DNA from: an uncultured Spirochaetales bacterium
Lineage (GTDB): Bacteria > Myxococcota_A > UBA9160 > SMWR01
Direction: 5' to 3'
DNA length: 61,359 bases
Assembly (NCBI GenBank): GCA_964649065.1
Contig: CAZYOL010000003.1
Coordinates: 1 to 61,359, forward strand
In this document: one piece after another, positions 9,455 through 56,285 of the stretch
Layout: every line of letters begins with the position of its first letter
How positions within the stretch are numbered: the stretch's first letter is position 1
Notes under the pieces: generated by a model
What the model saw: the letters and a program-made list of their open reading frames with translations, nothing else
Databases searched by the model: none
Told to the model about the DNA's origin: nothing
Program-made: the position numbers and the translations under genes

Positions 9455-9464
9455 GGGAGAGACC

Positions 9465-10637: not shown

Positions 10638-10696
10638 TTCTCTCCCGCTTGCTCCTCGCAATGCCTACCCCTCCGTCGCGAAGGTCGGCCGGCCCC

Positions 10697-12330: not shown

Positions 12331-12332
12331 GG

Positions 12333-15960: not shown

Positions 15961-17378
15961 GTGAGCCCCCTCTCCTTCATGGTGCGCTCGTAGAGACCCG
16001 ACTCGCGGAGCGCGTAGAGATTTTCCAGAACCTGCCGGAACACCTTGTCCCAGTCACTGCTCACCTTGTACGCGAACATCGCCGTCCGGCGGCTGCCATT
16101 GGCCTTGAGCGACTTCACGAAGCGCTCGCGGAGGGCCCGGCCCGCGTAGAGGTTGTCGTACACGTACTGCATGCCCTCGATGAAGTCGTCCAGCGACATG
16201 TGCGAGAGCGTGTGGGTCAGGTGCGCGGTGTCGTAGTACTCCCAGTCCTCCGGGAAGTTGTCCCGCAGCAGCCGGTTCTCCTTCTCCATCCGCTTGAAGA
16301 GCGGCGTCGAGGGGAAGGGGCAGTGGATGCCGAAGGTCAGGATGTCGATGGAGTGTTCCAGGATGTAGTCGGTCATGACCTTGAAGGCATCCTTGGTCTG
16401 GAAGTCGGCCCCCCAGATCACGGAGGCCCAGACGACCATGCCGTTGTCGTGGATGTTCTTGATGGCCGACGGGTAGTTCTCCACGCCGGTCTTCAGGTTC
16501 GAGCCCTTGCGGAGCTTCTTCAGCACCTCCGGGTCGGTCGACTCCATGCCGATCAGCATGCCGAGGCAGCCGCTGTCGGACATGTCCTTCAGCGCGTCGA
16601 CGTCGTGGCCCGTGCTGAACTGCGAGAAGCCGAACCAGTCCTTGCGGATGCCGCGCTCCACCATGCCCCGGAAGAGCTTCCGCGCCCGCTCGTTCGACTC
16701 GGGCTTGTAGCCGTAGAAGTTGTCCTCGGCGAACATCAGGCCACGGAAAGGCGTGGCCTCCATCTCGTCGAGGACGTCGTCGATCTCCCGCTCCCGGTAG
16801 GTGCGGCCCGAAGACATGGGCACGCTGCAGAACTCGCAGCGCCAGGGGCAGCCCTTGGTGGTCACGATCGACGAGTACTTGTAACCGTACTTGCCCTTGA
16901 AGAGATCCCGGTCCGGATGCTTCTGCATGTAGGTCAGGTCCGGGAAGTCGCCGTCGTAGAGCTTCTCGAGCGTGCCGTTCTCGAAGTCGTCCAGGATCTT
17001 GGCCCAGATCGGCTCCGCCTCCCCGACGACCACGGCGTCCACGTGGTTCATCGCCTCCTCGCGGGCGGTGGTCGCGTGGGTGCCGCCGAAGACCACCGGG
17101 ATGCCCTTCGCGCGGCACTGGGCGGCGATCTTGTAGGCGCGCGGCGCCTGGTAGGTGAGCGAGGTGATGCCGACGAGGTCGGCGTCGAAGGTCAGCCGCC
17201 CCTCGTCGTCGAGGGCCTCCTCGTGGATCTCGTCGATCATGTCGATTTCCCACGCGTCTTGCGGCGTGTGGGCGGCGATGTAGGCCAGGTTGAGCGGCAT
17301 TTGCACGATCACCCGGATGTCTTCTTCGCCGTGGCGCCCCTTGGGGTGCGGGTTGATGAGTACGAGCTTCTTCTTCAC
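15948..17378 (-). CDS. B12-binding-domain radical SAM enzyme (class B), family A, copy 1
   Basis: It has the same architecture (DLVGITSLTYQAPRAY, VVFGGTHAT, GCPWRCEFC). I trimmed the start to GTG 17378 (VKKKLVLINPH), preceded by GGGGAGGG and overlapping the desaturase stop (GTGA). Confidence 0.85.
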   Translation of the reverse strand: MKKKLVLINPHPKGRHGEEDIRVIVQMPLNLAYIAAHTPQDAWEIDMIDEIHEEALDDEGRLTFDADLVGITSLTYQAPRAYKIAAQCRAKGIPVVFGGTHATTAREEAMNHVDAVVVGEAEPIWAKILDDFENGTLEKLYDGDFPDLTYMQKHPDRDLFKGKYGYKYSSIVTTKGCPWRCEFCSVPMSSGRTYREREIDDVLDEMEATPFRGLMFAEDNFYGYKPESNERARKLFRGMVERGIRKDWFGFSQFSTGHDVDALKDMSDSGCLGMLIGMESTDPEVLKKLRKGSNLKTGVENYPSAIKNIHDNGMVVWASVIWGADFQTKDAFKVMTDYILEHSIDILTFGIHCPFPSTPLFKRMEKENRLLRDNFPEDWEYYDTAHLTHTLSHMSLDDFIEGMQYVYDNLYAGRALRERFVKSLKANGSRRTAMFAYKVSSDWDKVFRQVLENLYALRESGLYERTMKERGLTCLN

Positions 17379-18808
17379 GAGGCCCTCCCCTCTTCTCCAC
17401 TCTCCTGGATTCGCTTGGCGGCCATCCAACCTGAAGCTGCCACCGCGCACACCCCGGGACCCGGTGAGGTCCACTGGCCCGCGAGCCAGAGACCGTCGAG
17501 TGAGGTGTGCTGAGCGAAGCGGTCGTTGCCCGACTGGTCTGGGGTCACTGCCCAGCCATAGGCCACCCCCTCCTTGGAGAGCGTATAGCGCGCCAGCGTC
17601 CGTGGCGACGCCGCTTCCAGGAAGGTGAGATGATTTCCGATGCCCGGCACCCGGTCGTCCAGATAGCCGAGCACGGCCTCGGACATGCTGGCCTTCGAGT
17701 CCTGCCAGCTCGTGAAGGCCTCGGAGTCCGGCCGGACGCCGACCGTGGCGGACACGATCTGCTCGCCGTTCGGCGCCAGGCCCGGATCGACTTCCGTGGT
17801 GACCGAGAGGTAGATCCAGTCGATGGCCGGATGGTCCTCGGGGAAGTGATAGAAGCCCCGCACCAGCGGCGACAGGTCGACCTCCGGAGAGAAGGCCGCG
17901 TAGAAGCCATAGAAGGAGGGACCGGCCTTGAGCTCGCGGATGCGCTGGCGCTCCGGGGCACAGGCCGACTCGGGGAGCAGATCGAAGAAGAGCTGGCGGG
18001 CATCGATGGCGCTGATCACCGTGTCGGCGCGGATCGTCCGCCCCCCCTCGAGCCGAACCCCGGCGGCCCGGTTGCCCTCGATCAGGATCTCGCTGACGTG
18101 CTGGCGCAGGCAGACGTGACCGCCCGCTCGCTGCACCGCGTCCACCATCGCATTCGAGAAGGCCTGGGTGCTCCCCACCGGGTAGTAGGCGCCGTCCTTC
18201 AGGTAGTTCACGAGCATCTGGCACATCCCGACCGCCGAGATCTCCTCGGCGCGGGAGCCGAGGTAGCCCCACTGACCGGCGAGGACCTTCACGAGCCGCG
18301 GATCCTCGAAGTAGTCGGCCAGCATCTCGTGGTAGGTGGAGCCCCGGTAGCGATCGATCAGCTCGCCGCCGCGGCGCCGGTTCAACACCTGCCGGTAGAG
18401 GCGCACGAGGTCGGTGAAGAAGCGCGGAATCTGCTCCTTCTCGTCGGGGAAGCGCTGGGCCAGCTCGACCTGGTACTGCTCCAGCTCCGCCGGGATCTCC
18501 AGCTCGAGATCCGGGAAGATCAGGTGGTCCATCGGGTCGAGGCGCAGGAGCTTCACCTCCACCCCGAGCCGCGAGACCACCTGCCCGACGATGCCGAAGC
18601 GCCCGCATCCGCCGATGTGGTGGACGGCCGCATCGAAGACGTACTTCTTGCGCGGGAACGCGGTGCAGTAGCCGCCCGGCAGGTAGTGCTGGTCGAGCAC
18701 CAGGGTGCGGCCGCCGGCCTGGCTGAGAAAGCCGCCGCAGGTGAGCCCGCCGATGCCGGCTCCGATCACCACCTGGTCGTAACGATCCAGCAGCTCCGAT
18801 GCGCGCAT
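17375..18808 (-). CDS. Phytoene desaturase (CrtI)-family FAD-dependent oxidoreductase
   Basis: The FAD dinucleotide fold is VVIGAGIGGLTCGGFLSQAG. The block GGYCTAF..FD and the C-terminal GLWLAGQWTSPGPGV are typical of the CrtI / amine-oxidase family. I trimmed the start to ATG 18808. Confidence 0.8.
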   Translation of the reverse strand: MRASELLDRYDQVVIGAGIGGLTCGGFLSQAGGRTLVLDQHYLPGGYCTAFPRKKYVFDAAVHHIGGCGRFGIVGQVVSRLGVEVKLLRLDPMDHLIFPDLELEIPAELEQYQVELAQRFPDEKEQIPRFFTDLVRLYRQVLNRRRGGELIDRYRGSTYHEMLADYFEDPRLVKVLAGQWGYLGSRAEEISAVGMCQMLVNYLKDGAYYPVGSTQAFSNAMVDAVQRAGGHVCLRQHVSEILIEGNRAAGVRLEGGRTIRADTVISAIDARQLFFDLLPESACAPERQRIRELKAGPSFYGFYAAFSPEVDLSPLVRGFYHFPEDHPAIDWIYLSVTTEVDPGLAPNGEQIVSATVGVRPDSEAFTSWQDSKASMSEAVLGYLDDRVPGIGNHLTFLEAASPRTLARYTLSKEGVAYGWAVTPDQSGNDRFAQHTSLDGLWLAGQWTSPGPGVCAVAASGWMAAKRIQESGEEGRAS

Positions 18809-18816
18809 GGCCTGCT

Positions 18817-19983
18817 TCACGCCCGGGACACCACCACCGCGCCGCAGTGCCCGGCCTCGTCGCGAGCCGTCACCAGGACGTGGTCCACGGTCGTCTCCCG
18901 CGCCTCGCCGATCACCAGGTCGAGCCCGGCCGCGTCGGCGTCGACGTTCGCGAGCCCGGCCACGGGAGGAATCCGGTTGGAGAGAATCGAGCTCGTCGCG
19001 GAGACGACGCCGATGGCGCCGGAGGCCTCGAGACACTCGCGCGTCGCCGACTTGGGAGCGTTGACGGGCACGGCCCCCGCCGCCTCGCCGAGCAGCGCGC
19101 GAATCGCGGCCAACTCGATCGCATCACCGGACACGCTGCCGGAGGCCCCGGAGGAGATCAGCGAGAGATCCTCGGCGCGCAGCGACGCCTGCGCGAGGGC
19201 TCCGCGCATGGCGACGACCAGGCCCTCGTGGGGCGCCGTGGAGCCCTCGGGCGGAGCGAAGGAGGTGCAGGCGCCGGCGATCCAGGCCAGCGCGGGTGCG
19301 CCGCGCGTCTCGGCCGCCGACTCGTGCTCGAGCACCACGACCGCCGCCCCCTCTCCGAGCACGGCGCCGCGACGCTTGGCGCCGAAAGGCGCCTCGGCCT
19401 GGGCGGCGTCGCCCAGCAGGCCCGCGCGCTGGAAGCCCAGCTCGATCTCGCTCGAGTAGCCCAGGGCCGCCCCGCAGATCGCCGCGCGAATCTGACTGCC
19501 GCTCAGGGTGGCCAGGCTGTGGGCCAGGGCGTCCAGCGCCGAGGCGGAGCCGCTCGAGAGCGTCGAGTTGAGTCCGGTGACTCCGAGTCGAATGGCGAGG
19601 CGCCCCGCGGGCGCATTGATCACGGTATTCGCGAAGGACTGCGGATTCACGTAACGCGGCCCCTCGCGCAGGGCCTCCTGATCGAAGTCCGCGATCGACT
19701 GGATGCTCCCGTGGGTCTCGCCCACCACGATGCCGATCTCCTCGGGCTCGTACGCCCCCTCGGGGAGCTTGCTCGCGTCGATGGCTGCCGTGGCCGCGCT
19801 CGCCAGCAGCAGGGCGGTGCGGTCGAAGTGGCGGATGCCGCGCTCGCCGAGGTAGGCCCCCGGCTCGAAGTCGGACAGGGTCCCGGGCATGCCCACGCGC
19901 CCCTCGAGCATCGCCTCGAAGGCCACCTCGGGGCCCAGCCCGGCCGGGCAGAGCAGTCCGGCACCGGTGATCACCACCCTCAT
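18817..19983 (-). CDS. Ketosynthase-like partner subunit lacking the catalytic triad (chain-length-factor type)
   Basis: It has a thiolase-fold N-terminus, MRVVITGAGLL. The Cys position reads Ser (STLSSGSASALDAL versus PTACAAGNYAL), and the His positions are replaced (ACTSFAPP, SSGASGSVSGD). The ATG at 19983 overlaps the KS stop (ATGA). Confidence 0.75.
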   Translation of the reverse strand: MRVVITGAGLLCPAGLGPEVAFEAMLEGRVGMPGTLSDFEPGAYLGERGIRHFDRTALLLASAATAAIDASKLPEGAYEPEEIGIVVGETHGSIQSIADFDQEALREGPRYVNPQSFANTVINAPAGRLAIRLGVTGLNSTLSSGSASALDALAHSLATLSGSQIRAAICGAALGYSSEIELGFQRAGLLGDAAQAEAPFGAKRRGAVLGEGAAVVVLEHESAAETRGAPALAWIAGACTSFAPPEGSTAPHEGLVVAMRGALAQASLRAEDLSLISSGASGSVSGDAIELAAIRALLGEAAGAVPVNAPKSATRECLEASGAIGVVSATSSILSNRIPPVAGLANVDADAAGLDLVIGEARETTVDHVLVTARDEAGHCGAVVVSRA

Positions 19984-21191
19984 GCGTCGACGGCCCTCAG
20001 GACCAGGCAGCTGTTGTTCCCGCCGAAGGCGAAGGCGTTGTTGAGTGCCACGCGCACCGGGTGCTGCCGGGCCTCGTTGGGAACCATGTCCACCTCGCAC
20101 TCGGGATCCGCGTTCTCGTAGTGGATGGTGGGCGGGATCGCCCCGGTCTCGATCGCCAGGCAGCAGGCGATGGTCTCGATGGTGCTCGCCGCTCCCATGG
20201 TGTGACCGATCATCGACTTGATGGAGCTCATCGGCGCCTCCCCCCGGTCGTTGAAGAGGGCGCGCACCGCGGCGGACTCGATCTTGTCGTTGGCCTTGGT
20301 GCCGGTGCCGTGGGCGCTCACGTAGTCGACCTCGCCCGGGCTCACGCGGGCGGCCTTGAGCGCCCGGCGCATCGCCAGCTGGATCCCGCGGCCCTCGGGA
20401 TGGGGCATGGTCATGTGATGGGCGTCACAGGAGAAGCCCGCCCCGACGACCTCGGCGTAGATCCGCGCGCCGCGCCGCCGCGCCGAGCTCAGGGACTCCA
20501 CCACCACCATGCCCGCCCCCTCGCCGATCAGCAGGCCCTGACGCTCCCGGTCGAAGGGCCGGCAGTACTCCGGGGCGATGGCACCCAGACGGGCGAAGCC
20601 CGTGAAAGCCACCCTGGAGAGCGGATCGGAGCCGCCGGCCAGCACGACCTCGGTCTGGCCCGTGCCCACCCAGCCCCCGGCGATCGAGAGGGCGTAGTTG
20701 CCGGCGGCGCAGGCCGTCGGCACGACCACGTTGGGCCCGCAGAGATCGAAGGCCGACGCCACGCTCCCGGAGATCACGTGGCAGGGGTGCTTCAGGAACT
20801 CGCGCTCGGGCACGGCCTCCTGGCCGCGCTCGAGGCTGACGTCGTTCATGTGCTCGAGGACCTGGATCTCGCCGCCGGTGGTCCCCACTGCGACGCCGGC
20901 GTTGCGCGGCGGCCTGTCGAGGCCGGCGTCCGCCAGCGCCAGGCGCGCCGCCTCGATGGCCAGCAGGCTGGCCCGCCCCGGATCCCGATCGCCCGCCGGG
21001 CGGATCTCGCGTCCGAAGAGGGCATCGTCGTCCAGCTCGCAGGCGCGGTGCACCTTGAAGCCCGAGGTCTCGAAGCTCGAGACCTCGCTGGAGCCGTCCT
21101 GCCCCTCGAGCAGCGCCCGCCAGAAGTCGTCGCGACCCGCCCCGATGGACGTGATCGGACCGAGCCCCGTGATGACCGCGCGCTCTGCCAT
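19980..21191 (-). CDS. Beta-ketoacyl-ACP synthase II-like (active KS)
   Basis: Catalytic motifs are intact: TACAAGNYAL (Cys), SCDAHH, SAHGTGTKAND, GHTMGAAS, FGGNN. Confidence 0.9.
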   Translation of the reverse strand: MAERAVITGLGPITSIGAGRDDFWRALLEGQDGSSEVSSFETSGFKVHRACELDDDALFGREIRPAGDRDPGRASLLAIEAARLALADAGLDRPPRNAGVAVGTTGGEIQVLEHMNDVSLERGQEAVPEREFLKHPCHVISGSVASAFDLCGPNVVVPTACAAGNYALSIAGGWVGTGQTEVVLAGGSDPLSRVAFTGFARLGAIAPEYCRPFDRERQGLLIGEGAGMVVVESLSSARRRGARIYAEVVGAGFSCDAHHMTMPHPEGRGIQLAMRRALKAARVSPGEVDYVSAHGTGTKANDKIESAAVRALFNDRGEAPMSSIKSMIGHTMGAASTIETIACCLAIETGAIPPTIHYENADPECEVDMVPNEARQHPVRVALNNAFAFGGNNSCLVLRAVDA

Positions 21192-21703
21192 CAGGAGCCG
21201 TTCCCCGACGACTGCGCCGCGGACAGGGTCGCGTCGCGTTGGATCGCCGCGCGGTCGACGCGCGCGAAGGTCAGCCCGGCCTTCAACACGACTCGGCCGT
21301 CCACTTCACCGCGAGCCTTGACCATGGCGGCCTTCGAGTAGATCCGCTCGACGTCGACGAAGATGCGCAGGGCATCGCCCGGCACGACGGGGTGCAGGAA
21401 GTGCGAGCGCGAGCGCCCGACCACGAAGACCTGGTCGGGCTCCGCCGAGAGCATCGACTCCCCGGTATCACTCATTCGGAAGAGCAGGATAGAGGCCTGC
21501 GCGCAGGCCTCCATCATCAGCGCACCCGGCATGATCGCGATCTCCGGGAAGTGCCCCGCGAAGTAGGGCTCGTTGCCGCTGACGTTCTTCAGACACTCGA
21601 TCGACTCGAAAGGAACGACGTCGATCACCCGGTCGATGAAGACGAACGGGTAGGTCTGCGGCAGCAGCCGACGGAGCGTGTCGAAGTCGAGGCCGGTCGA
21701 CAC
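21191..21703 (-). CDS. fabZ: 3-Hydroxyacyl-ACP dehydratase
   Basis: The FabZ signature is LLPQTYPFVFIDRV ... NEPYFAGHFPE..IMPGALMMEACAQ. It uses a GTG start. Confidence 0.85.
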   Translation of the reverse strand: MSTGLDFDTLRRLLPQTYPFVFIDRVIDVVPFESIECLKNVSGNEPYFAGHFPEIAIMPGALMMEACAQASILLFRMSDTGESMLSAEPDQVFVVGRSRSHFLHPVVPGDALRIFVDVERIYSKAAMVKARGEVDGRVVLKAGLTFARVDRAAIQRDATLSAAQSSGNGS

Positions 21704-21710
21704 GAACGTT

Positions 21711-21968
21711 CTAGGCGGCGGCGTTCTTTTCCAGCTCGCGCCGGACCAGTGCGATCGTGGCTGTGAGCGACGTCACATCCAGGAGCTCTTCCTCCTCGAT
21801 CTCGATCCGGTACTTCTTCTCGATGCTCGCCACGATCTCGAGGGCCAGCATCGAGTCGATCTCGAGCTCGTCCATGAAGTGCTTCTCGCGCTGCTCCCAG
21901 AGCTCCTTCTCGTCGATCTCGGTCACCTCGGCCACGATGGCGGTGATTTCTTCCTCGAGCTGGCTCAT
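21711..21968 (-). CDS. Acyl carrier protein (dedicated)
   Basis: This is an 85-aa acidic protein with the phosphopantetheine-attachment motif ELEIDSMLALEI. It is the first gene of the minus-strand operon. I trimmed the start to ATG 21968. Confidence 0.85.
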   Translation of the reverse strand: MSQLEEEITAIVAEVTEIDEKELWEQREKHFMDELEIDSMLALEIVASIEKKYRIEIEEEELLDVTSLTATIALVRRELEKNAAA

Positions 21969-22235
21969 GCCTCTCCTTTCAAGGCTACGCGGTCCACACC
22001 TGCACGGGTCCCAATGGACGTGAGCGTGTGGTGACCCCCCAAGGTCGTTCGCGCGCCTAACTTCGCGTTCGGTACCCGCGGCGTCAAGCCCTGTGCCGCC
22101 CGACGCACGGATGCGGACGATACACAAGACGAGCGTTCTGCCAAAGAGCGGTGTGGGGCTTTTCCTTCACTTTTTGCGCTTCCCCCGGGCGCACCCCGCC
22201 CCGCGGCGGGGTATCCTGCCGCGCCAGCGCGAGCC
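21969..22235. promoter_or_regulatory. Divergent intergenic region between the ACP operon and the crotonase/rSAM operon
   Basis: This 267-bp gap separates the divergent first genes. It contains the only comparatively A/T-rich stretch nearby (22159-22182, cttttccttcactttttgcgcttc) and the inverted repeat CCCCGCC-n4-GGCGGGG (22194-22211). No -35/-10 boxes could be assigned with confidence. Confidence 0.3.
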
Positions 22236-23069
22236 ATGGAAACCTCCTTCTTCGACGTCGACACCAAGGACCAGATCGCCCATGTCCGCATGGCGCGCCC
22301 CAAGCGCTTCAATGCGCTGGACGCCGATTTCTGGCGGGAGCTGCCGGCGCTGCTCGGCGAGCTGGACGCGAGCGGCGACGTGCGGGCCATCGTCCTCTCC
22401 TCCACGGGCCGACACTTCAGTGCGGGAATGGACAACGAGATGCTCGCCTCGCTCGGGCCCGACCCGTCGGGAAGCGAGTCCGATGCGCGCGCAAACGTGC
22501 GCGCGCGCGCCACGCAGCTCCAAGAGGTCTTCAACGCCCTCGAGGAAGTCCGCATGCCGGTGATCGCCGTGATCCAGGGCGGCTGCGTGGGCGGCGCGCT
22601 CGACATGGTGGTGGCCTGCGACATCCGTTACTCGACGGCCAATGCCTTCTTCTGCATCGGCGAGATCAACCACGCGATCACCGCAGACCTCGGCACGCTG
22701 CAGCGATTGCCGAAGCTGATCCCGCCGGGCGTGGTGCGCGAGCTGGCCTTCACGGGCCGCCGTCTCCCGGCGGAGAGCGCCCTCCGCCTCGGCCTGGTGA
22801 ACGAGGTCTTCGAGGGCCCCGAGGCGGCCCTGGAGGCCGCCCTGCAGACCGCTCGCGAGATCGCCGCCCAGGCTCCGGCGGCGATCTGGGGCACGAAGGT
22901 GGCCCTCAACTACGCGCGCGATCACTCCGTGGCCGACTCCCTCGACCAGGTCGCCACGTGGCAGTCCGGCATGTTCCGTCCGGGGGACGTGGGCGAGGCG
23001 ATGCTCGCCCGGCGCAAGCGCCGCCCCCCGAGCTTCGAGAATCTACCGCCCAGGCCCCGTCGGCCTTGA
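22236..23069 (+). CDS. Enoyl-CoA hydratase/isomerase (crotonase) family protein, dienoyl-CoA isomerase-like
   Basis: The crotonase fold is indicated by ARPKRFNALD, HFSAGMD, VIAVIQGGCVGGALDMVVACDIRY and FTGRRLPAESALRLGLVNEVF. Confidence 0.85.
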   Translation: METSFFDVDTKDQIAHVRMARPKRFNALDADFWRELPALLGELDASGDVRAIVLSSTGRHFSAGMDNEMLASLGPDPSGSESDARANVRARATQLQEVFNALEEVRMPVIAVIQGGCVGGALDMVVACDIRYSTANAFFCIGEINHAITADLGTLQRLPKLIPPGVVRELAFTGRRLPAESALRLGLVNEVFEGPEAALEAALQTAREIAAQAPAAIWGTKVALNYARDHSVADSLDQVATWQSGMFRPGDVGEAMLARRKRRPPSFENLPPRPRRP

Positions 23070-23136
23070 AAGGCGGGCAGATGGCCTATGGTGGGGGCCG
23101 ATGGAACGAGCGCCTGCGGCGCTCAGGGGGGAAGTG

Positions 23137-24693
23137 ATGCGGATCTACCTGATCAACCCCGCGATGCAGAACTGCTTCTATAGCCTGTCTGAATCGGCGG
23201 AGATCACCGACAAGCCGGGCTTCATCCCGAATCTGGCGCTGCCGACCCTGGCCGCGCTCACGCCCGACGACATCGAGGTCGAGGTCTGCGACGAGACCGT
23301 CGAGCCGGTGGATCTGGACAAGTCCTGCGATCTGGTGGGCATCACGGGCTACGTCTCCCAGGCCAAGCGCATGTTCGAGCTGGCGCGCGCCTTCCGCGAG
23401 CGCGGCAAGCTGGTGGCCATCGGCGGCCCCTACGCCTCCCTCAGCCCCAGCCGCTGCCGTCCCTACGCCGACATCCTCTTCACCGGGGAGGCCGAGCGCA
23501 CCTGGCCGGCCTTCCTGGAGGACTTCCGGAGGGGCGACTATCGCGACAGCTACCACGAGAGCGAGAAGCCCGACCTGGCCAGCTCTCCCGCCCCCGACAT
23601 CGACGTGCTGAAGAAGGGCGCCTACATCAGCGGCGTCATCCAGACGAGCCGCGGCTGCCCCTTCGAGTGCGAGTTCTGCGACGTCATCGTCTACCTGGGC
23701 CGCAAGATGCGACACAAGCCGGTGGAGCACATCCTGGCGGAGGCCGACGCCCTCTACGCCCGGGGCTACCGCTCGATCTTCCTCTCCGACGACAACTTCA
23801 CCGCCAATCGCAAGAAGGCCAAGGCGATCCTGCTGGCCCTGCGCGAGTGGAACGGGGCCAAGGGAGACGATCCGGTGCTCTTCAGCACACAGCTCTCGAT
23901 CGATTCCGCGCGTGACGAGGAGCTGCTCTCGCTGTGCGCCGAGGCCGGCCTGCGCGTGGCCTTCATCGGCATCGAGACGCCCAACAAGGACTCGCTCACC
24001 GAGGTCCGCAAGCGCCAGAACGTGGCCAGCGATCTCCTGCAGGACATCCGGACGATCCAGGGCCACGGCCTGGCGGTGCTGGCGGGCATGATCGTCGGCT
24101 TCGACCACGACACCCCGGACGTCTTCCGCGAGCAGTTCGACTTCCTGCAGGCCTCCAGCATGCCGATCTGCGCGCCGGGCATGCTGAACGCGCCGGAGGG
24201 CACCCCCCTGGAGGCGCGGCTCAAGGCCGAAGGCCGCCTGGTCACCAGCCGCGAGGACTTCTACGTCGAGACCAACATCATCCCCAAGCAGATCAGCCCG
24301 GAGCAGCTGCGCCACGGCCTGCGCTGGCTGCTGAACCGCCTCTACCACCCCGAGCACTTCGTGCAGCGCGTGCTCGACGTCTGCGAGGTCTGGCCCGAGG
24401 GGGGCAACGTCTACCTCGGCGTGGGCTCGGCCGAGGCCATGAAGCTCTTCCTGGGCATCCGGCGGGCCTACCAGCAGATGGGGCCCGAATTCGAATCGAT
24501 TCCGGACCGCTGCTTCGCGGCCAGCCGCAAGGCCTCGGCGCTGGGGGGCGTGGGCTGGTTCCTGCTCCAGTACAAGCACATCGTCACGGTCATGAAGCAA
24601 ACGGGGCAATGGGACCCGGAACTCGCAGAACGCAGCGAGCCCTTCGAGCCCGTGGCGATGGAGCCGGCTCGGACGGCGGGAGGGGTGGCCTGA
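23137..24693 (+). CDS. B12-binding-domain radical SAM enzyme, family B (long C-terminal extension), copy 1
   Basis: It has DLVGITGYVSQAKRMF..LVAIGGPYAS (B12-type domain) and SRGCPFECEFCDV (CxxxCxxC). I trimmed the start to ATG 23137 (MRIYLINP), preceded by GGGGGGAAG. Confidence 0.85.
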   Translation: MRIYLINPAMQNCFYSLSESAEITDKPGFIPNLALPTLAALTPDDIEVEVCDETVEPVDLDKSCDLVGITGYVSQAKRMFELARAFRERGKLVAIGGPYASLSPSRCRPYADILFTGEAERTWPAFLEDFRRGDYRDSYHESEKPDLASSPAPDIDVLKKGAYISGVIQTSRGCPFECEFCDVIVYLGRKMRHKPVEHILAEADALYARGYRSIFLSDDNFTANRKKAKAILLALREWNGAKGDDPVLFSTQLSIDSARDEELLSLCAEAGLRVAFIGIETPNKDSLTEVRKRQNVASDLLQDIRTIQGHGLAVLAGMIVGFDHDTPDVFREQFDFLQASSMPICAPGMLNAPEGTPLEARLKAEGRLVTSREDFYVETNIIPKQISPEQLRHGLRWLLNRLYHPEHFVQRVLDVCEVWPEGGNVYLGVGSAEAMKLFLGIRRAYQQMGPEFESIPDRCFAASRKASALGGVGWFLLQYKHIVTVMKQTGQWDPELAERSEPFEPVAMEPARTAGGVA

Positions 24694-26264
24694 TGCGCAT
24701 CTACCTCGTGAATCCCCCGATGCAGAGCAACCACATCCACGCCACCTTCTACAGCCAGACCGAGGCGGTGGACATCACGGGCAATCCGGGATTCATCCCG
24801 AACCTGGCCCTGCCGACCCTCGCCGCGCTCACACCCGACGACATCGAGGTCGAGATCTGCGACGAGACCGTGAGCCGGGTGGACTTCGACAAGGACTGCG
24901 ACCTGGTCGGCATCACCGGCTACGTGACCCAGGCCCGGCGCATGTTCGAGCTGGCCGACGAGTTCCGCAGGCGCGGGAAGCTGGTGGCGATCGGCGGCCC
25001 CTTCGCCACGCTGAGCCCGCAGCGCTGCCGGCCCCACGCGGACGTGCTCTTCACGGGCGAGGTGGAGAGCACCTGGCCGGTCTTCCTCGAGGACTTCCGC
25101 AAGGGCAGCCACCAGGACGCCTACGACGAGCCCGGCTCCGCCGACATCCAGGCCTCGCCGGTGCCGCGCATGGACCTGCTGCAGAACCACCTCTACACGA
25201 GCGGCGTGATGCAGACGAGCCGCGGCTGCCCCTTCGAGTGCGAGTTCTGCGACGTGATCGTCTACCTGGGGCGACGCATCCGCTACAAGACCACCGAGCA
25301 GGTGCTGAAGGAGGCCGATTCGCTCTACCGCCTCGGCTACCGCGGCGTCTTCATCTCCGACGACAACTTCACGGCGAACCGCAAGAAGGCCATCGAGATC
25401 CTCCAGGCCCTCCGGGACTGGAACAAGAGCAAGCACCCGCGACCGGTCATCTTCGGCACCCAGCTCTCGATCGACATCGCACGCAGCCCGGAGATCCTCG
25501 ATCTCTGCGCCGACGCCGGCCTGCGCATCGCCTTCGTCGGCATCGAGACGCCGAACAAGGAGGCGCTCAAGGAGGTCAAGAAGCGCCAGAACATGGCCAG
25601 CGACCTCGTGAACGACCTCCACGAGCTGATGCGCCACGGCATCCTGCCGATGGCGGGCGTGATCGTCGGCTTCGACCACGACACCCCGGACGTCTTCCGC
25701 GAGCAGTTCGAGTTCCTGCAGGAGGCGGGCCCGCCCATCTGCGGCACCGGCATGCTGAACGCGCCGGAGGGCACCCCCCTGGAGGCGCGGCTCAAGGCCG
25801 AGGGGCGCCTGGTGGCCGTGCGCGACGACTTCTACGTCGAGACCAACATCATCCCCAAGCAGATGTCCGTCGAGCAGCTCTCGCACGGCCACCGCTGGCT
25901 GCTCAATCGCCTCTACCGCCCCGCGCACTTCCTGGATCGGGTGCGGACGGTCTGCGCCCACTGGCCCCAGGGCGGGGCCGCGCACCTGGGAACGACCCTG
26001 GAAGAGGCGATCACCATCCGCGAGGGGCTGCTCAAGGCCTACGCGAGCCTGGGCCCGGAGTTCCGCGATCTTCCGGACCGCTGCTTCCAGGCCGTGCGCA
26101 GGCGCCGGGTGCCCACGGCCTTCGCCGTGATCGGACAGGCGCTCATCCAGTACAAGCACGTCGTGGCGCTGACGATGAAGGCGGGCTGGTGGGACCCGGA
26201 TCTGGCCGCCAGCGAGGATCCCTGGGAGAGCTTCGACACGGCGCGCCGCTCGGCCGGTGCCTGA
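24693..26264 (+). CDS. B12-binding-domain radical SAM enzyme, family B, copy 2
   Basis: It is a tandem paralog of the previous gene, sharing runs such as GFIPNLALPTLAALTPDDIEVE, SRGCPFECEFCDVIVYLGR, GFDHDTPDVFREQF and FYVETNIIPKQ. Its ATG overlaps the preceding stop (TGATG). Confidence 0.85.
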   Translation: MRIYLVNPPMQSNHIHATFYSQTEAVDITGNPGFIPNLALPTLAALTPDDIEVEICDETVSRVDFDKDCDLVGITGYVTQARRMFELADEFRRRGKLVAIGGPFATLSPQRCRPHADVLFTGEVESTWPVFLEDFRKGSHQDAYDEPGSADIQASPVPRMDLLQNHLYTSGVMQTSRGCPFECEFCDVIVYLGRRIRYKTTEQVLKEADSLYRLGYRGVFISDDNFTANRKKAIEILQALRDWNKSKHPRPVIFGTQLSIDIARSPEILDLCADAGLRIAFVGIETPNKEALKEVKKRQNMASDLVNDLHELMRHGILPMAGVIVGFDHDTPDVFREQFEFLQEAGPPICGTGMLNAPEGTPLEARLKAEGRLVAVRDDFYVETNIIPKQMSVEQLSHGHRWLLNRLYRPAHFLDRVRTVCAHWPQGGAAHLGTTLEEAITIREGLLKAYASLGPEFRDLPDRCFQAVRRRRVPTAFAVIGQALIQYKHVVALTMKAGWWDPDLAASEDPWESFDTARRSAGA

Positions 26265-27189
26265 GCCGCCGGGCGAGGGCACGCCCTGCGCCGAGACCGG
26301 CCCGCCCCTCGCCTGCCCGCCCGAGCGCACGCGCCACGTCGATTCCGGCGGGCTGAGCCTGGCGGTGCACGAGTGGGGCCCCGAGCGCGGCCAGCCGGTG
26401 CTGCTGGCGCACGGGGGCTTCGATTTCGGTCGCAGCTTCGACCTCTTCGCCCCGCTGCTGGCCCAGGAGGGCTTCCGGGTCGTGTGCTGGGACCAGCGCG
26501 GCCACGGCGACTCGGATCACGCCGCACTCTACGGCTGGTCCGCCGACGTCTACGACGCCAGGGTCGTCCTCGACTCGACCTCGCCCGCGCCGGTGCATGC
26601 GCTCGGGCACTCCAAGGGAGGGCTGGTGCTGCTGGGCCTGATCCAGGCCCTGCCCCACCGCTTCCTGCGCTTCGTGAACATCGACGGGATGCCCTTCGAG
26701 AGGCCGCCGGGCCCCCTCAGCCCGGAGGAGCAGGCCCGGCTGCTGGCCGAGGGCATGGCGAGCTGGCTGGACGCGCGCGCGCGGCTCGGAGGCGAGACCC
26801 CGCCGGCGCGCTCCCTCGAGGAGCTGGCCCGCCGGCGCCAGACCATGAATCCGCGTCTCTCCCTCGACTGCCTGCGCTACCTGGTCCGGGCCGGGGCCCG
26901 GGAGGACGAGCACGGGTGGCGCTGGAAGCTGGATCCGCTGCTGCGCACGGCCGCCTTCGGGCTGCTGCGGCCGGAGTGGGAGCCCCACCGCCTGCGCGGC
27001 CTGAGCGTGCCCCTGCTGGCCCTCTTCGGCCTGGTGCAGGAGCCGATGAGCTGGGGCGCCAGCGTCGAGGCCATCGAGCCCTTCCTGCCGCCGGGGGCCC
27101 AGCTCCGGGCCCTCGAGGCGATCGGCCACTTCGCCCACCTGGAGCAGCCCCGGCGCATCGCCGATCTGGTGCTCGAGTTCCTGGGCTGA
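26257..27189 (+). CDS. Alpha/beta-fold hydrolase
   Basis: It has HGGFDFG, WDQRGHGDS, the nucleophile elbow GHSKGG, and a C-terminal IGHFAHLEQP (catalytic His context). Confidence 0.8.
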   Translation: MPEPPGEGTPCAETGPPLACPPERTRHVDSGGLSLAVHEWGPERGQPVLLAHGGFDFGRSFDLFAPLLAQEGFRVVCWDQRGHGDSDHAALYGWSADVYDARVVLDSTSPAPVHALGHSKGGLVLLGLIQALPHRFLRFVNIDGMPFERPPGPLSPEEQARLLAEGMASWLDARARLGGETPPARSLEELARRRQTMNPRLSLDCLRYLVRAGAREDEHGWRWKLDPLLRTAAFGLLRPEWEPHRLRGLSVPLLALFGLVQEPMSWGASVEAIEPFLPPGAQLRALEAIGHFAHLEQPRRIADLVLEFLG

Positions 27190-27878
27190 TGGCTCCGCCC
27201 TCGACCGTGAAGCTCGTGAACGGTCGCGTGGAGCTGGCCCTCCACAGCCTCCGCGAGGCGCGCTCGGGATCCCCGGGAGAGCGGCCGCTGCTCTTGCTGC
27301 ACGACCTCGCCGAGCGATCGCCCCTGCGCGTCCCGAAGGGATTGGAGGCCTGGCCGGGCTCCGTCCACGCCCTGGACTTCACCGGGCACGGAGACTCGAC
27401 GATCCCCCTCGGCGGGGGCTACACGGCCGAGGTGCTGCTGGCGGACGCCGACACTGCACTGCGACATCTAGGCACGGCGACCCTGCTGGGCCGGGGGCTC
27501 GGCGCCTACGTGGCCCTGATGCTCGCCGGTGTGCGGGCCTCCCGGGTGCGCGGCGCGATCCTGATGGACGGCGCCGGTCTGGCCGGCGGCGGCCCGAAGC
27601 CGGGAACGCCCTTCGTGCCCGCGGCACCGCCGGCGGGCAAGGCGCCGCCCGACCCCTGGGCCCTCTACGAGCTGTCCCGCGATCCGCGCCCGCCCGACTA
27701 CGCCGCCTCCTTCGCGCGCATGGCCGCGCTGCTCTCCGGCCTCGAGCGTCCCGTCTCGGTCTGCTGCAGCGAGCGGCCCCCGTGGCTGGCCGGCGTGCTG
27801 GGAATGCCGGGGGTGGACGACTCCACGCTGTCGGACGCGCTGAGCCGCTACGCCAAGCTCGAGACGGGAGCGACATGA
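27189..27878 (+). CDS. Alpha/beta-hydrolase-like protein with degenerate nucleophile elbow
   Basis: It has LLLLHD, LDFTGHGDS and an elbow reading GRGLGA instead of GxSxG. Its ATG overlaps the preceding stop (TGATG). Confidence 0.6.
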   Translation: MAPPSTVKLVNGRVELALHSLREARSGSPGERPLLLLHDLAERSPLRVPKGLEAWPGSVHALDFTGHGDSTIPLGGGYTAEVLLADADTALRHLGTATLLGRGLGAYVALMLAGVRASRVRGAILMDGAGLAGGGPKPGTPFVPAAPPAGKAPPDPWALYELSRDPRPPDYAASFARMAALLSGLERPVSVCCSERPPWLAGVLGMPGVDDSTLSDALSRYAKLETGAT

Positions 27879-28702
27879 GGCTCAAGGACAAGGTCGTGCT
27901 GATCACGGGCGCCAGCCGCGGCGTGGGAGCGGCCTGCGCCGAGGCCTGCGCCCGCCAGGGCGCCCGGCTGGCCCTCGCCGCCAAGACCCTCGATCCACAC
28001 CCCCGCCTGCCGGGCACGCTGCGCGACGTGGCCCGTCGGGTCGAGGGCCTGGGCTGCGAGGCCCTGGTGATCCCGGTCGACCTGAGGTTCGAGGACCAGG
28101 TGGAGGAGATGGTGGAGCAGACCATCGACCGCTTCGGCCAGCTCGACGTGCTCGTCAACAACGCGGGGGCCCTCTTCCTGGGCCCGGTCGACGCCTGGCC
28201 GGTCGAGAAGTTCGACCTCGTGATGTCGGTGAACGTGCGGGCCGCCTACCTGGCGAGCCGCTTCGCCCTCCCCCTGCTGCGCCGCAGCGGCGGCCACGTG
28301 CTGATGATGTCTCCGCCGCTGCCCGGCAGCGCAGCCGCGGGCAAGGCTCCCTATGTCGTCTCGAAGCTGGGCATGACGCTGCTGGCCCAGGCCATCGACG
28401 CGGAAGAGAGCGAGGTCCACGCCTGCGCCCTGTGGCCGATCACCGCGGTCAAGACCGCGGCGACCGAGCGCATGGGCATGGTGGCCGACCGGGAGCTGAG
28501 TCGACCGGAGCTGCTGGCCGACGCCACCGTCGAGCTGATCGCACGAGAGCCGAGGGCCTGCCGCTTCCGCGCCTGGCTCGACGAAGAGGTGATGCGCGAG
28601 CTCGCCGGCCTGCGAAGCTTCCGCCGCTATCGCTGCGACCCGCGGCACGAGCCGCCCCCCGCCAGCATGAAGCTGGTGGATGCGGAGTGGGAGCGGAGCT
28701 GA
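27875..28702 (+). CDS. Short-chain dehydrogenase/reductase
   Basis: Motifs TGASRGVG, NNAG and YVVSK (YxxxK) are present. The ATG at 27875 overlaps the preceding stop (ATGA). Confidence 0.85.
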   Translation: MRLKDKVVLITGASRGVGAACAEACARQGARLALAAKTLDPHPRLPGTLRDVARRVEGLGCEALVIPVDLRFEDQVEEMVEQTIDRFGQLDVLVNNAGALFLGPVDAWPVEKFDLVMSVNVRAAYLASRFALPLLRRSGGHVLMMSPPLPGSAAAGKAPYVVSKLGMTLLAQAIDAEESEVHACALWPITAVKTAATERMGMVADRELSRPELLADATVELIAREPRACRFRAWLDEEVMRELAGLRSFRRYRCDPRHEPPPASMKLVDAEWERS

Positions 28703-28705: not shown

Positions 28706-29608
28706 TCAACCCGCCTCGAAGGCCTCTCTCGCCTCGGCAAAGGCCTCGAGGGCCTGGGCCTCGTGCGGATCGTGGAAGGCCAGCAGCAGCTGCTCGACCC
28801 CGACCTCCCGCAGTCGGGCCAGCTGCTCCGGGATCTCCTCGGGTCTCCCGCACAGCGCGCGCTCGATCACCCGGGGTGCGTGCTCGGCTCCGCGCTGCTC
28901 TCGCAGCTCCCCGAGCAGCGCCCGGAGCCGCTCCCGGTCGCGTCCGACGAAGCCGTCCACCTCGAGCGAGCGCAAGACCGGCCGCGCTCGCCCTGCCGCT
29001 TGCGCCTCGAAGCGCGCGCGCAAGGCAGCGAACTCGGCCGGAGTGCGGTAGGAGGCCTCCCAGACGTCGGCCAGCCGCGCGGCGCAGGCCAGGCCGGAGG
29101 GGCCGCTGGCCGCGACGGTGACGGGGATCTCCAGAGGCGGAAGGCCCAGGCCCACCTCCGGCTGCCCCGGCTCCGGGGCCAGGCGCAGGCTGTCGCCGGC
29201 CCACAGCCTGCGCAGCACGGGCAGATCCAGGGCGAGGCGCTCGAGCCGCTCGGCGTAGCCGGGGTAGGACACGCCGAAGGGTCGCCACCAGGGCTCGGCG
29301 TAGCGCCGCGCGGCGCCGGCGCCGGTTCGGAAGTCGAGTCGACCCCCGGAGATCAGCGCAACGCTGGCGGCCTGGCGCGCCAACAGGGCCAGCGAGCGGT
29401 AGCTCGGGAGCAGGTTGGCGATGACGGGCCCCAGACGGATGCGTCGGGTGGCGCGGGCCAGCGCGGCGAGCACCGTCCAGCAGTCGAGATTCAGGCCGGT
29501 GGGAGACTCCCCGTAGTAGAAGGCGTCGTAGCCGAGGCGCTCGGCCAGCAGGCAGGTGCGCTCGATCTCCCGCCAGTCGCTCGACCAGACCTCGAGCGCG
29601 TATCTCAC
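28706..29608 (-). CDS. Luciferase-like monooxygenase (LLM) class flavin/F420-dependent oxidoreductase
   Basis: The TIM-barrel LLM pattern is present: ERLGYDAFYYGE, RIRLGPVIAN, GGRLDFRTGAG. The cofactor cannot be decided by eye. Confidence 0.7.
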   Translation of the reverse strand: MRYALEVWSSDWREIERTCLLAERLGYDAFYYGESPTGLNLDCWTVLAALARATRRIRLGPVIANLLPSYRSLALLARQAASVALISGGRLDFRTGAGAARRYAEPWWRPFGVSYPGYAERLERLALDLPVLRRLWAGDSLRLAPEPGQPEVGLGLPPLEIPVTVAASGPSGLACAARLADVWEASYRTPAEFAALRARFEAQAAGRARPVLRSLEVDGFVGRDRERLRALLGELREQRGAEHAPRVIERALCGRPEEIPEQLARLREVGVEQLLLAFHDPHEAQALEAFAEAREAFEAG

Positions 29609-30246: not shown

Positions 30247-31299
30247 TCAGGCGGGCGCCTCCTCCCGCACCAGCTCGACCATCCGACCCAGCGTGTCCAG
30301 GCGCTCCGTGAGCGTCTCTCCGGCCGGCACCAGGCGCAGGCTCGAGATGCCGAGCTCCCCGTAGCGCCGGATCCGATCGCGCACGAAGGCCTCGCTCCCG
30401 ATGAAGTTCGAGCGCTCGATCATGGCATCCGGCACGGCCCGCGCCGCATCGCCGCGCCTCCCGGCCAGCCACAGCGCCTGCACTTCCCGGGCCGCATCCT
30501 CGAAGCCGCCGCGCCGGTAGGCGTCGTTGTAGAAGTTGGTCCGCGCGGAGCCCATGGCCCCGAGCATGAAGGCGTAGAACGGACGGGCCGCCCGGAATAG
30601 GGGCTCCGGATCGTCGGTGATGGCGACCGTGCCTCCGGCGCAGAGGCTGAGCGCCGAGAACGCGCGGCCGGCCTTCTCGGCGCCCCGCCGCAGGTGGGCC
30701 AGGTGCGCCTCCGCGTGCTCCGGTGTGAAGCAGACGCCCAGCCAGCCGTCGGCCAGCTCTCCGGTCAGCTCCAGGCCCTTGGGCGAGAGGGTGGCCAGAT
30801 AGATGGGAATCTTCTGGTTGCGGGCAAAGCCCAGGCGCAGGGGCTTGCCCTCGCCGCCCGGCCGCGGCAGCTCGTAGTGCTCGCCCCGATGGACGAGCGG
30901 TCGGCCGCGGAAGGCCTGGCGCAGGATCGAGACCACCTCGCGCATGCGGGTCAGCGGCTTGCGGAAGGACTCCCCGTGCAGGCCCTCGACCACCTGGGGA
31001 CCCGAGGCCCCCAGACCCAGCAGGAAGCGGTTTCGGCTCAGCGCCGCCAGGCTGAGGGCGGTCATGGCCGTCATGCTGGGCGTGCGCGCCGTGAGCTGCA
31101 GGATCCCCGTCCCGAGGGCGATCCGCTGCGTCCGCGCGGCGACATAGGCCAGAGTGGACACGGCGTCCAGGCCCCAGGCCTCCGAGGTCCAGGCCTGGTC
31201 CACGCCCAGCTTCTCGGCCTCGACCGCGAAGATCGCCGTCTCCTCGAAATCGCGCTGGAGCCCTGCCTCGGGCCCCCCGATGCTGATCGCGGTCTGCAT
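30247..31299 (-). CDS. LLM class flavin/F420-dependent oxidoreductase
   Basis: LLM blocks are present: AEKLGVDQAWTSEAWG, RIALGTGILQL, RFLLGLGASGPQVVEGLHG. Confidence 0.8.
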   Translation of the reverse strand: MQTAISIGGPEAGLQRDFEETAIFAVEAEKLGVDQAWTSEAWGLDAVSTLAYVAARTQRIALGTGILQLTARTPSMTAMTALSLAALSRNRFLLGLGASGPQVVEGLHGESFRKPLTRMREVVSILRQAFRGRPLVHRGEHYELPRPGGEGKPLRLGFARNQKIPIYLATLSPKGLELTGELADGWLGVCFTPEHAEAHLAHLRRGAEKAGRAFSALSLCAGGTVAITDDPEPLFRAARPFYAFMLGAMGSARTNFYNDAYRRGGFEDAAREVQALWLAGRRGDAARAVPDAMIERSNFIGSEAFVRDRIRRYGELGISSLRLVPAGETLTERLDTLGRMVELVREEAPA

Positions 31300-32313: not shown

Positions 32314-32784
32314 TCAGGCGGCGTAGGCGTCGCAGGCCTCGACGCAGCGCCGGCAGGCCTCGAGACAAGCCTGGCACGACGGGTGCTTCTCGGCGTGGGG
32401 CTCGCACTCCCCGGCGCAGTCGTTGCAGAAGTCCGCGCAGACGGCAGCCAGGTCGCGCGTGCGCGGGCTCATTGCCGCATCCGAGGCGGCGATGGCGTGG
32501 GTTGCGCGGCTGACGGCCTGCACGCGCAGCACGCTCTCCAGACAGCGGGCCAGGGTGGTGTCGCCGGAGGCGAGCTCCGCCACGCAGTGGCGGATGCACT
32601 CCGCCGCCGCGTCCTGGCAGTCCAGGGTGGCCTCGCGCAGGGCGAGGATCCGCTTGTCCACTGCCCCGTGCGAGGCCGAGTGGTGCCCGCCCTCCGCGTG
32701 CTCCGCCTGGGCCGCAGCGGCCCGGGCCAGGGTCATGGCGGCGACGCCCGTCGTCGCTCCGTACAGGAATTCCCGACGATCCAT
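32314..32784 (-). CDS. Tat-exported four-helix-bundle Cys-rich copper-binding protein (DUF326 / Csp1-like)
   Basis: A twin-arginine signal (MDRREFLYGATTGVAAMTLARAAAAQA) is followed by a helical domain with 13 Cys in CxxxC-type spacing (DCQDAAAECIRHC, VCADFCNDCAGEC, SCQACLEACRRCVEAC). Confidence 0.75.
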   Translation of the reverse strand: MDRREFLYGATTGVAAMTLARAAAAQAEHAEGGHHSASHGAVDKRILALREATLDCQDAAAECIRHCVAELASGDTTLARCLESVLRVQAVSRATHAIAASDAAMSPRTRDLAAVCADFCNDCAGECEPHAEKHPSCQACLEACRRCVEACDAYAA

Positions 32785-32864
32785 GGGATCGATCCTCCGA
32801 GTGACCGGAGCGGCGAGCGGGCGCACCCCGCGCCCGCGGCGGCATCCGGTGCTGGGCGAAGACC

Positions 32865-33281: not shown

Positions 33282-33452
33282 CCACGCCCGCCCGAGGCCC
33301 ATCGTAGGAAGGTACGCAGCGCGGGCGGGAATCGCCATCCCGTCGCCCCGTCCAGTCAGAGCGGAAGCGTCGCAACCGACGGGAGAGGATCACGGCACGG
33401 AGGAGATGCCGGCGCGAATCGAGGGGAGCGAGCGCCCCTCGGCTGCCGGCCG

Positions 33453-42798: not shown

Positions 42799-42861
42799 CA
42801 CACCTCCTGCTGCGAGCCGTTATAGCGGCCGCAGCCGCCGGCCTCTAGTCGGGCTCCGTGG

Positions 42862-53504: not shown

Positions 53505-53560
53505 CTTCCCCCCAGGCCGCCCTCATCGGCGCGCGGGGCGCGGCCCTTGAAGACCGCGGG

Positions 53561-56281: not shown

Positions 56282-56285
56282 GGGG

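Follow-up and report, generated by a model that had tools for sequence, protein, structure and literature searches.

What does an operon that combines a crotonase, two radical S-adenosylmethionine (SAM) enzymes, two hydrolase-fold proteins, and a short-chain dehydrogenase/reductase (SDR) contribute to the acyl carrier protein (ACP) operon from which it is divergently transcribed? This question is raised by a 61,359-nucleotide stretch of contig CAZYOL010000003.1 from an uncultured bacterium (hereafter the window, meaning the whole stretch of DNA that was analyzed), in which the six genes in question occupy positions 22236–28702. The answer has two parts. The minus-strand ACP operon is, judging by the similarity and order of its products, a gene-for-gene homolog of Cluster I, the putative ladderane cluster of anammox bacteria (KustE3603-3608) (PMC10139942; bioRxiv 10.64898/2026.05.19.726425). 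The six genes opposite it are probably, with considerable room for doubt, a lineage-specific accessory (tailoring/release) operon of this specialized type II fatty-acid synthase of the Cluster I type.

Since the window has about 72% G+C and most of its open frames are spurious, genes were called by the GC content at the third codon position (GC3). The + strand of 22236–28702 contains six co-directional genes with GC3 values of 0.85–1.0. All six are confirmed as real, at the following coordinates:

22236..23069, + strand: crotonase-fold protein of the predicted delta3,5-delta2,4-dienoyl-CoA isomerase (DCI) type, 277 amino acids (Pfam ECH_1, 131.7 bits)
23137..24693, + strand (open reading frame opens at 23101): radical SAM protein B1, 518 amino acids (Radical_SAM, DUF4070)
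24693..26264, + strand: radical SAM protein B2, tandem paralog of B1, 523 amino acids (same domains and cluster motif as B1)
26257..27189, + strand: alpha/beta hydrolase, 310 amino acids (Pfam Abhydrolase_1 and Abhydrolase_6; motif GHSKG)
27189..27878, + strand: short alpha/beta-fold protein, 229 amino acids (Pfam Abhydrolase_6, 34.9 bits; motif GRGLG)
27875..28702, + strand: classical SDR of the HSDL2/PRK08278 type, 275 amino acids (Pfam adh_short)

The divergent operon encodes the ACP, a dehydratase, four proteins of the ketosynthase (KS) family, of which two resemble chain length factors (CLF), a flavoprotein, two further radical SAM enzymes (A1 and A2), and a ketoreductase (KR):

21711..21968, – strand: amxACP-type acyl carrier protein (PDB 7qv0_D and 7auf_A, 92 bits; next AcpM, 37 bits)
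21191..21703, – strand: amxFabZ-type 3-hydroxyacyl-ACP dehydratase (7qv0_A, 8ayb, and 8ayd, 137–141 bits; canonical FabZ ≤95 bits)
19980–21191, – strand: KS1, amxFabF2-type (9s5h_B, 471 bits; next 320 bits; Cys-His-His intact)
18817–19983, – strand: KS2, amxFabFmut/CLF-type (9s5h_C, 252 bits; next 125 bits; triad lost)
17375..18820, – strand: phytoene-desaturase-like flavoprotein (PDH/CrtI-like; Pfam Amino_oxidase; crtI_fam 142.8 bits, cut-off 238.1)
15948–17378, – strand: radical SAM protein A1 (B12-binding and Radical_SAM)
14536–15960, – strand: radical SAM protein A2 (B12-binding and Radical_SAM)
13352–14539, – strand: KS3 (triad present)
12333–13355, – strand: KS4, CLF-like partner of KS3 (triad absent)
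11590–12336, – strand: FabG-type ketoreductase (TIGR01830, 301 bits; cut-off 297.75)

The gene order ACP-FabZ-KS-KS-PDH-radical SAM is the same in the window and at the Cluster I locus of Kuenenia (L084, 38% GC). Identities between the two are 59% for ACP, 47% for FabZ, 53% for KS, 38% for CLF, 43% for PDH, 58% for A1, and 53% for A2. The KS2 protein has Ser/Gly/Glu in the Cys/His/His columns and an ECL motif at the second His, as in the Kuenenia protein. A1 and A2, which share the motif CPWRCEFC and 57% identity with each other, are placed by these comparisons as co-orthologs of the Cluster I B12-radical SAM enzyme (KustE3608 type). The identities of 7qv0_A, 8ayb, and 8ayd as amxFabZ are given in PMC10139942. 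Together, the synthase genes of the window encode two KS/CLF pairs, one FabG, one FabZ, the flavoprotein, and two A enzymes, and no enoyl reductase.

Kuenenia has 38% GC and the window about 72%. The closest protein relatives carry labels of Myxococcota metagenome-assembled genomes (MAGs), and by these labels the host is probably a myxobacterium and not an anammox organism. Beyond the six shared genes, the operon of the window has another A-type radical SAM gene, another KS/CLF pair, FabG, and candidate head-group genes. To our knowledge, anammox bacteria are the only source from which ladderanes have been reported. Recent papers give Cluster I a central place in ladderane biosynthesis and describe it as shared by ladderane producers and absent elsewhere, and the anammox KS/CLF heterodimer decarboxylates malonyl-ACP and favors C6–C8 chains, while amxFabZ prefers short chains (PMC10139942; bioRxiv 10.64898/2026.05.19.726425). 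Two other assignments were rejected. A Bryobacteraceae homolog of KS1 (56% identity, L085) does not belong to the same kind of cluster, as it is accompanied by genes for an HMG-CoA reductase and an acyltransferase and by no radical SAM gene. As for an aryl-polyene (APE) cluster, the FabZ orthologs match ApeI-like proteins, but APE-specific genes are absent and the KS is far nearer to amxFabF2.

The link between the two operons was examined through the B genes. When B1 was queried against 5.8 billion proteins, relatives at 77–87% identity were found, some of them from MAGs labeled Myxococcota bacterium; all relatives are metagenomic. Five contigs (L001, L083, L087, L088, and L089) have the divergent arrangement of the window, with operon identities of 67–87%. 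The full six-gene block opposite ACP-FabZ recurs in L088, and partial copies are present in the other four. A second layout was found at 61–66% B identity in Microflora Danica (MFD) MAGs labeled 'delta proteobacterium', in one Thermodesulfobacteriota MAG, and in JGI contigs. There, the genes form one co-directional operon, KS-CrtI-A-A-A-KS-KS-ECH-KR-B, with a single B gene at its end.

In total, B genes that share 60% or more identity with those of the window are present at 13 loci (11 distinct contigs). Every one of the 11 loci with usable flanks has KS and crotonase genes, and most also have genes for ACP, FabZ, a CrtI-like protein, and family-A radical SAM enzymes; the remaining two (L093 and L096) are short fragments that match the second layout. 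In a neighbor-joining tree, B1 and B2 of the window group with the lone B protein of the second layout in one monophyletic clade, with the B1/B2 duplication inside the Myxococcota branch. This B clade was found only beside Cluster-I-type genes, in two layouts. The original prediction had taken the six genes for a companion operon of the ACP system and had proposed co-occurrence across genomes as the check. The companion reading is supported by these data, as the linkage outlasts a complete rearrangement from divergent operons to a single operon. Linkage of the two operons is thus well supported for the close clade; the broader family gives no firm guide to function. The number of radical SAM genes is four in both layouts, with two A and two B genes in the Myxococcota loci and three A genes and one B gene in the delta-type loci (L002, 1620–6078).

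Cluster-I-type cores are also found in further lineages. In a Planctomycetota MAG (L086, 9213–19713; 57% GC), ten genes follow the order of the window, ACP-FabZ-KS-KS-PDH-A-A-KS-KS4-KR, and other non-anammox cores are present on L090 (9236–15968; 66% GC) and L091 (9196–15208; 53% GC). The number of A genes at these loci varies, with two in L086 and one each in Kuenenia, L090, and L091. Counterparts of the crotonase, B-type radical SAM, hydrolase, and SDR genes were not found within 10 kb of the Kuenenia cluster; B1 and B2 share only 27–30% identity with the Kuenenia radical SAM protein, and none of the 80 top-ranking family-B genome loci carries an anammox label. The Cluster I core is thus a module shared by several lineages, to which the companion operon appears to be a lineage-specific addition.

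Among the enzymes of the operon, the crotonase has the clearest assignment. It passes the NCBIfam model PRK06142 (311 bits; cut-off 308), and its best PDB matches are the human and rat DCI structures 2vre, 8sk6, and 1dci (202–213 bits), followed by EchA21 of Mycobacterium tuberculosis (188 bits), with hydratases at 115 bits or less. Residues D123, E143, and D151 align with D176, E196, and D204 of rat DCI (chain positions 124, 144, and 152), which we take to be its catalytic acidic residues, and all three are kept in the orthologs of L001, L083, and L088. The original prediction of a double-bond-shifting crotonase is therefore supported at the sequence level by the DCI matches and the three aligned acidic residues, and the protein is assigned to the delta3,5-delta2,4-dienoyl-CoA isomerase type.

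The two hydrolase-fold proteins differ in their predicted capacity for catalysis. The first (26257–27189) has an intact nucleophile elbow, GHSKG, with Ser119. In the second (27189–27878), GRGLG stands in place of GxSxG, and the same replacement is present in the orthologs of L088 and L001. The description of both as hydrolases thus holds for the first; the second, which has no nucleophile serine, is probably a non-catalytic paralog or partner of the upstream enzyme. The SDR has the motifs TGASRGVG and YVVSK, passes NCBIfam PRK08278 (254.9 bits; cut-off 250), and is nearest in the PDB to human HSDL2 (3kvo, 167 bits); its L088 ortholog has 76% identity. Assignment of this SDR as a 2,4-dienoyl-CoA reductase, as a DCI/DECR pairing would have it, was rejected, since the protein is HSDL2-like and no dienoyl-CoA reductase is among the matches listed.

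For the radical SAM pair, B1 and B2 both contain SRGCPFECEFC, match Radical_SAM (PF04055) at 67–68 bits, and are 64–65% identical to each other. As their identity to the A pair is only 24–30% and they are about 45 residues longer, the earlier view of a different and longer family stands. In the AlphaFold model of B1 (pLDDT 85.5), a Rossmann-like N-terminal domain is followed by the radical SAM barrel and, starting near residue 388, by a C-terminal domain made of helices. The helical C-terminal extension that had been described is present in this model, with about 110 helical residues. The proposed check for DUF4070 (PF13282) was positive, with 35.6 bits for B1 and 42.6 bits for B2 (cut-off 22); this domain is not unique to family B, since A1 also passes (26.9 bits) and A2 does not (17.4 bits). 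Among 14 family-B members, the three cluster ligands are the sole invariant cysteines, so nothing suggests an auxiliary cluster.

The role of cobalamin is less clear. The original prediction counted four B12-radical SAM genes in about 12 kb. The count is correct (14536–26264, or 11.7 kb), but the B12-binding domain (PF02310) scores only 27.8 bits in B1 and 32.0 bits in B2, just under the gathering score of 32.1, while the A pair passes at 49–54 bits. Cobalamin dependence of family B is therefore putative. A cobalamin riboswitch was sought with Rfam as indirect support for B12 use (e.g., upstream of the TonB-dependent receptor gene at 33863–36055) and was not found in the window. The sole Rfam matches of the window are tRNA-Asp(GTC) at 51590–51666 (–) and tRNA-Val(TAC) at 60604–60680 (–).

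Foldseek searches with the B1 model returned AprD4, a diol dehydratase that works without B12, first (TM-scores 0.66 and 0.75), followed by the cobalamin enzymes CysS, TsrM, OxsB, MgmA, and TokK. AprD4 (6fd2) is also the top PDB sequence match of the B proteins, at only 44 bits and 21% identity. A review places AprD4 among unrelated enzymes (PMC12931638). None of the four radical SAM proteins reaches any NCBIfam cut-off, and no established unrelated role was found for orthologs of family B. Three family assignments were rejected on this basis. Scores against TIGR04072 (rSAM_ladder_B12; cut-off 360) are 56.8 bits for B1, 56.5 for B2, 62.0 for A1, and 74.7 for A2; those of the B pair against the AprD4 family NF033070 (cut-off 500) are 45.2 and 42.1 bits; and scores for cispentacin AmcE/AmcF are also under the cut-offs.

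The flank beyond the FabG gene may encode a head group. The following genes are located at 5980–11590 and were assigned from Pfam and NCBIfam matches:

10697–11590, – strand: metallo-beta-lactamase (MBL) hydrolase
9465–10664, – strand: myo-inositol-1-phosphate synthase (MIPS)
8126–9655 (open reading frame), – strand: PaaK/DVU_1553-like AMP ligase
7374–8243 (open reading frame), – strand: OlsC/LpxO-like acyl 2-hydroxylase
5980–7377, + strand: DegT aminotransferase

These are probably head-group or finishing genes, and their membership in the pathway is inferred. DegT genes (61–67% identity) also flank the clusters of the second layout, on the opposite strand (e.g., L002, 11588–15049). In a distant metagenomic locus (L123, 612–4428), MIPS-DegT-ligase-AcpS-like genes lie directly ahead of a B-like gene with SRGCPFECEFC, which is followed by KR-ACP-KR-KS-FabA-KS-GT2-epimerase-deacetylase. 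The flanking MIPS and DegT genes hint at an unusual, (amino)inositol-linked lipid head group.

These assignments can be combined into a tentative scheme for an accessory operon of the synthase. With the dedicated ACP as carrier, the KS/CLF pairs, the FabZ-type dehydratase, and the FabG-type reductase would assemble an acyl chain that is short and unsaturated, for later modification by the PDH-like flavoprotein and by A1 and A2. The DCI-type crotonase could then interconvert 3,5- and 2,4-dienoyl thioesters by moving the conjugated diene, restoring the register of a modified or elongated intermediate. B1 and B2, acting in turn or as a pair, may carry out further radical C–H chemistry on the tethered chain, such as C-methylation or C–C bond formation. 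The fold relatives CysS and TokK have been crystallized with pantetheinylated substrates, and by analogy carrier-tethered substrates are plausible for B1 and B2. The HSDL2-like SDR would adjust a keto or hydroxy group, and the serine hydrolase, perhaps with its nucleophile-less paralog, would release or transfer the product. The product would probably be handed to a head group derived from inositol, for which the genes lie on the opposite flank.

Several observations weigh against this scheme. The crotonase of the second layout differs in type, with a hydratase Glu/Glu pattern and only 29–30% identity, so the pairing of a crotonase with B holds at the superfamily level only. Relatives of family B at 52% identity or less are mostly found in unrelated contexts. 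This distant family is large and spans many phyla, and a KS or KR gene is near about 10–13% of the 109 loci compared by tblastn (10–15% among homologs at 40–52% identity). The neighbors that do recur are KS, FabG-like KR, ACP, FAAL-type ligase, and acyl-CoA dehydrogenase genes, which speak for the scheme, as well as further B12-type radical SAM genes. Moreover, the cores of L084, L086, L090, and L091 have no B gene or crotonase gene within 10 kb, and an operon that is dispensable in this way is not needed for the function of the core. For the B pair, with B12-domain scores below gathering and AprD4 as the top fold match, cobalamin binding is putative. Finally, the crotonase and the SDR may act on thioesters of either ACP or CoA.

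Different chemistries may also be considered for the B pair. One possibility, which we regard as less likely than not, is that B1 and B2 are class-B cobalamin-dependent C-methyltransferases that branch the unsaturated chain, with the isomerase restoring conjugation after each methylation. The arrangement of a Rossmann-like domain, a barrel, and a helical C-terminal domain fits this proposal, and the fold matches to CysS, TsrM, TokK, and MgmA/QCMT all have a probability of 1.0. The weak NCBIfam matches are mostly to methylases (PhpK, HpnR, and KedN5), DUF4070 appears in the literature on the hopanoid methylase HpnP, and family B has no conserved extra cysteine set that would imply an auxiliary cluster. 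However, every methylase model scores 76 bits or less against cut-offs of 251–775, the B12-binding domain is under the Pfam threshold, and the same fold also supports ring contraction, cyclization, and dehydration. The last of these reactions leads to a second proposal, which seems rather unlikely to us: B1 and B2 would be AprD4-like, cobalamin-independent dehydratases, or related rearranging enzymes, that act on a vicinal diol, either in a head group (inositol or aminocyclitol) or in a hydroxylated chain, and the SDR would reduce the resulting ketone. AprD3 is the reductase partner of AprD4. An SDR or KR is the commonest neighbor of family-B genes. AprD4 is the best match by both PDB sequence and structure, the B12 domain is sub-threshold in the pair and scores only 20 bits in the L123 homolog, and MIPS and DegT genes are present in the window as well as directly ahead of the B-like gene of L123, where GT2 and deacetylase genes are also found; the AMP ligase and acyl hydroxylase genes on the flank of the synthase likewise lend this proposal some weight. 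Nevertheless, the similarity amounts to 21% identity, with 42–45 bits against 500 for NCBIfam rSAM_AprD4, and true cobalamin enzymes match the B1 model nearly as well. Wherever the layout is close, the B genes have crotonase, KS, and KR genes around them, all of which handle thioesters, and the neighboring KR of the delta-type layout and of the distant loci is FabG-like, with 43–53% identity to the FabG of the window.

A different question is whether the operon belongs to the synthase at all. It might be an independent catabolic unit, for auxiliary beta-oxidation, that merely adjoins the ACP operon, given that the nearest characterized relatives (DCI/ECH1, EchA21 of M. tuberculosis, and HSDL2) come from fatty-acid degradation or peroxisomal metabolism. 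We consider this highly improbable. The divergent pairing is kept in at least five further contigs, and the B clade stays with the synthase after complete rearrangement of the operon. In addition, two radical SAM genes lie between the crotonase and the hydrolases in tightly coupled reading frames, and genes for a thiolase, an acyl-CoA dehydrogenase, or a ligase are absent from the operon. The accessory-operon reading remains the one that we favor.

Clusters of this general kind have been noticed before. The synteny of other, extended type II fatty-acid synthase clusters between Kuenenia and Desulfotalea psychrophila was noted by Rattray et al. 2009 (PMC2649909), and antiSMASH calls of 'ladderane' biosynthetic gene clusters in non-anammox MAGs, including Myxococcota and Desulfobacterota, were left unexplained (PMC9902471). 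The window resembles these clusters in having divergent FabF paralogs, radical SAM genes, and amine-oxidase/phytoene-desaturase-like genes around an ACP gene, whereas an operon with dienoyl isomerase, B-type radical SAM, hydrolase, and SDR genes is not described in those reports. A second parallel is the highly reducing type II polyketide synthase (PKS), such as that of ishigamide (Iga11/Iga12), which likewise has KS/CLF, ACP, KR, and dehydratase but no enoyl reductase and yields a polyenoyl-ACP. Iga11 (6kxd) is the second-best PDB match of KS1 (320 bits), but KS1 scores 150 bits higher against amxFabF2, and we know of no radical SAM genes in highly reducing type II PKS systems. The B pair has the three-domain architecture and CxxxCxxC motif of CysS, TokK, TsrM, OxsB, MgmA/QCMT, and AprD4, yet shares only 16–21% identity with them. 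The best crotonase matches are ECH1/DCI and EchA21, but the context here is biosynthetic rather than one of beta-oxidation. In a recent review of radical SAM enzymes that modify lipids, the single Cluster I enzyme is the sole entry under ladderanes, and our literature search found no description of the B clade, of the pairing of B with a crotonase, or of the six-gene operon. We rate the Cluster-I-type synthase as a known kind of system and the accessory operon and the B clade as new.

Ladderane biosynthesis has been unsolved for two decades, with no genetic access to any producer. Related cores in at least three further non-anammox lineages imply either that the modified acyl building block made by Cluster I is of a more general kind or that ladderane-like lipids are commoner than thought. 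The strongest form of the latter, that Myxococcota and their relatives use the Cluster-I-type synthase and its companion operon to make ladderane-like or otherwise radical-cyclized fatty acids, is in our view improbable. If true, the dienoyl isomerase and the B pair would add steps that none of the current ladderane proposals contains, and the loci would provide comparators and an expressible gene set outside the genetically intractable anammox bacteria. The companion operon names accessory enzymes that can be tested, namely the dienoyl isomerase, the serine hydrolase, and the SDR.

The gene junctions are less uniform than first described. The original prediction stated that the whole operon is chained by overlaps of 1–4 nt, which fits only three of the five junctions. 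B1/B2, the tandem paralogs, are joined by TGATG as claimed (1 nt), as are the first and second hydrolase-fold genes (TGATG, 1 nt), and the second of these overlaps the SDR gene by 4 nt (ATGA). B2 and the first hydrolase gene, which begins with GTG, overlap by 8 nt, and an identical 8-nt overlap is present in L001, L087, and L088. Between the crotonase and B1 genes lie 31 nt if B1 begins at its first ATG, or 67 nt if it begins at the ATG at 23137. The latter is more probably the B1 start than 23101, as it follows the purine-rich Shine-Dalgarno sequence GGGGGGAAG, yields the family N-terminus MRIYLINP, and matches the protein-database start.

The space between the two operons is of the size that had been reported, as the ACP gene starts at 21968 (–) and the crotonase gene at 22236:

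21969..22235, no strand: shared divergent control region, 267 bp between the ACP and crotonase starts

A sigma-70 scan of this region returned one weak site, on the – strand only (22144–22117). Although the divergent spacers of the window, L001, and L083 otherwise show little conservation, the motif GCGTCAAGCCC (about 22082–22092) is invariant in all three. The window and L083 also have a TATCCT/TATGCT/TATGAT element, about 20–35 nt upstream of the position where the crotonase gene is called to start. GCGTCAAGCCC and the TATCCT-type element may represent a shared regulatory site or promoter.

Other features of the window lie outside the two operons. Open reading frames of 359 and 582 amino acids at 32314–33393 and 51774–53522 (–) have a coding-type GC3 bias and no Pfam match. 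At 53561–58250 (–), an MMPL/RND-type transporter with a sterol-sensing-like domain adjoins a patatin-like phospholipase, and each is fused to a cyclic-nucleotide-binding domain. Directly downstream of the six-gene operon are two genes for luciferase-like monooxygenases (28706–29608 and 30247–31299), of which the first is convergent with the operon, the two stop codons being only 3 nt apart. Further on, 42352–42819 encodes a member of the F420H2-dependent quinone reductase family, and together with the luciferase-like monooxygenases it suggests F420-linked redox chemistry in the host.

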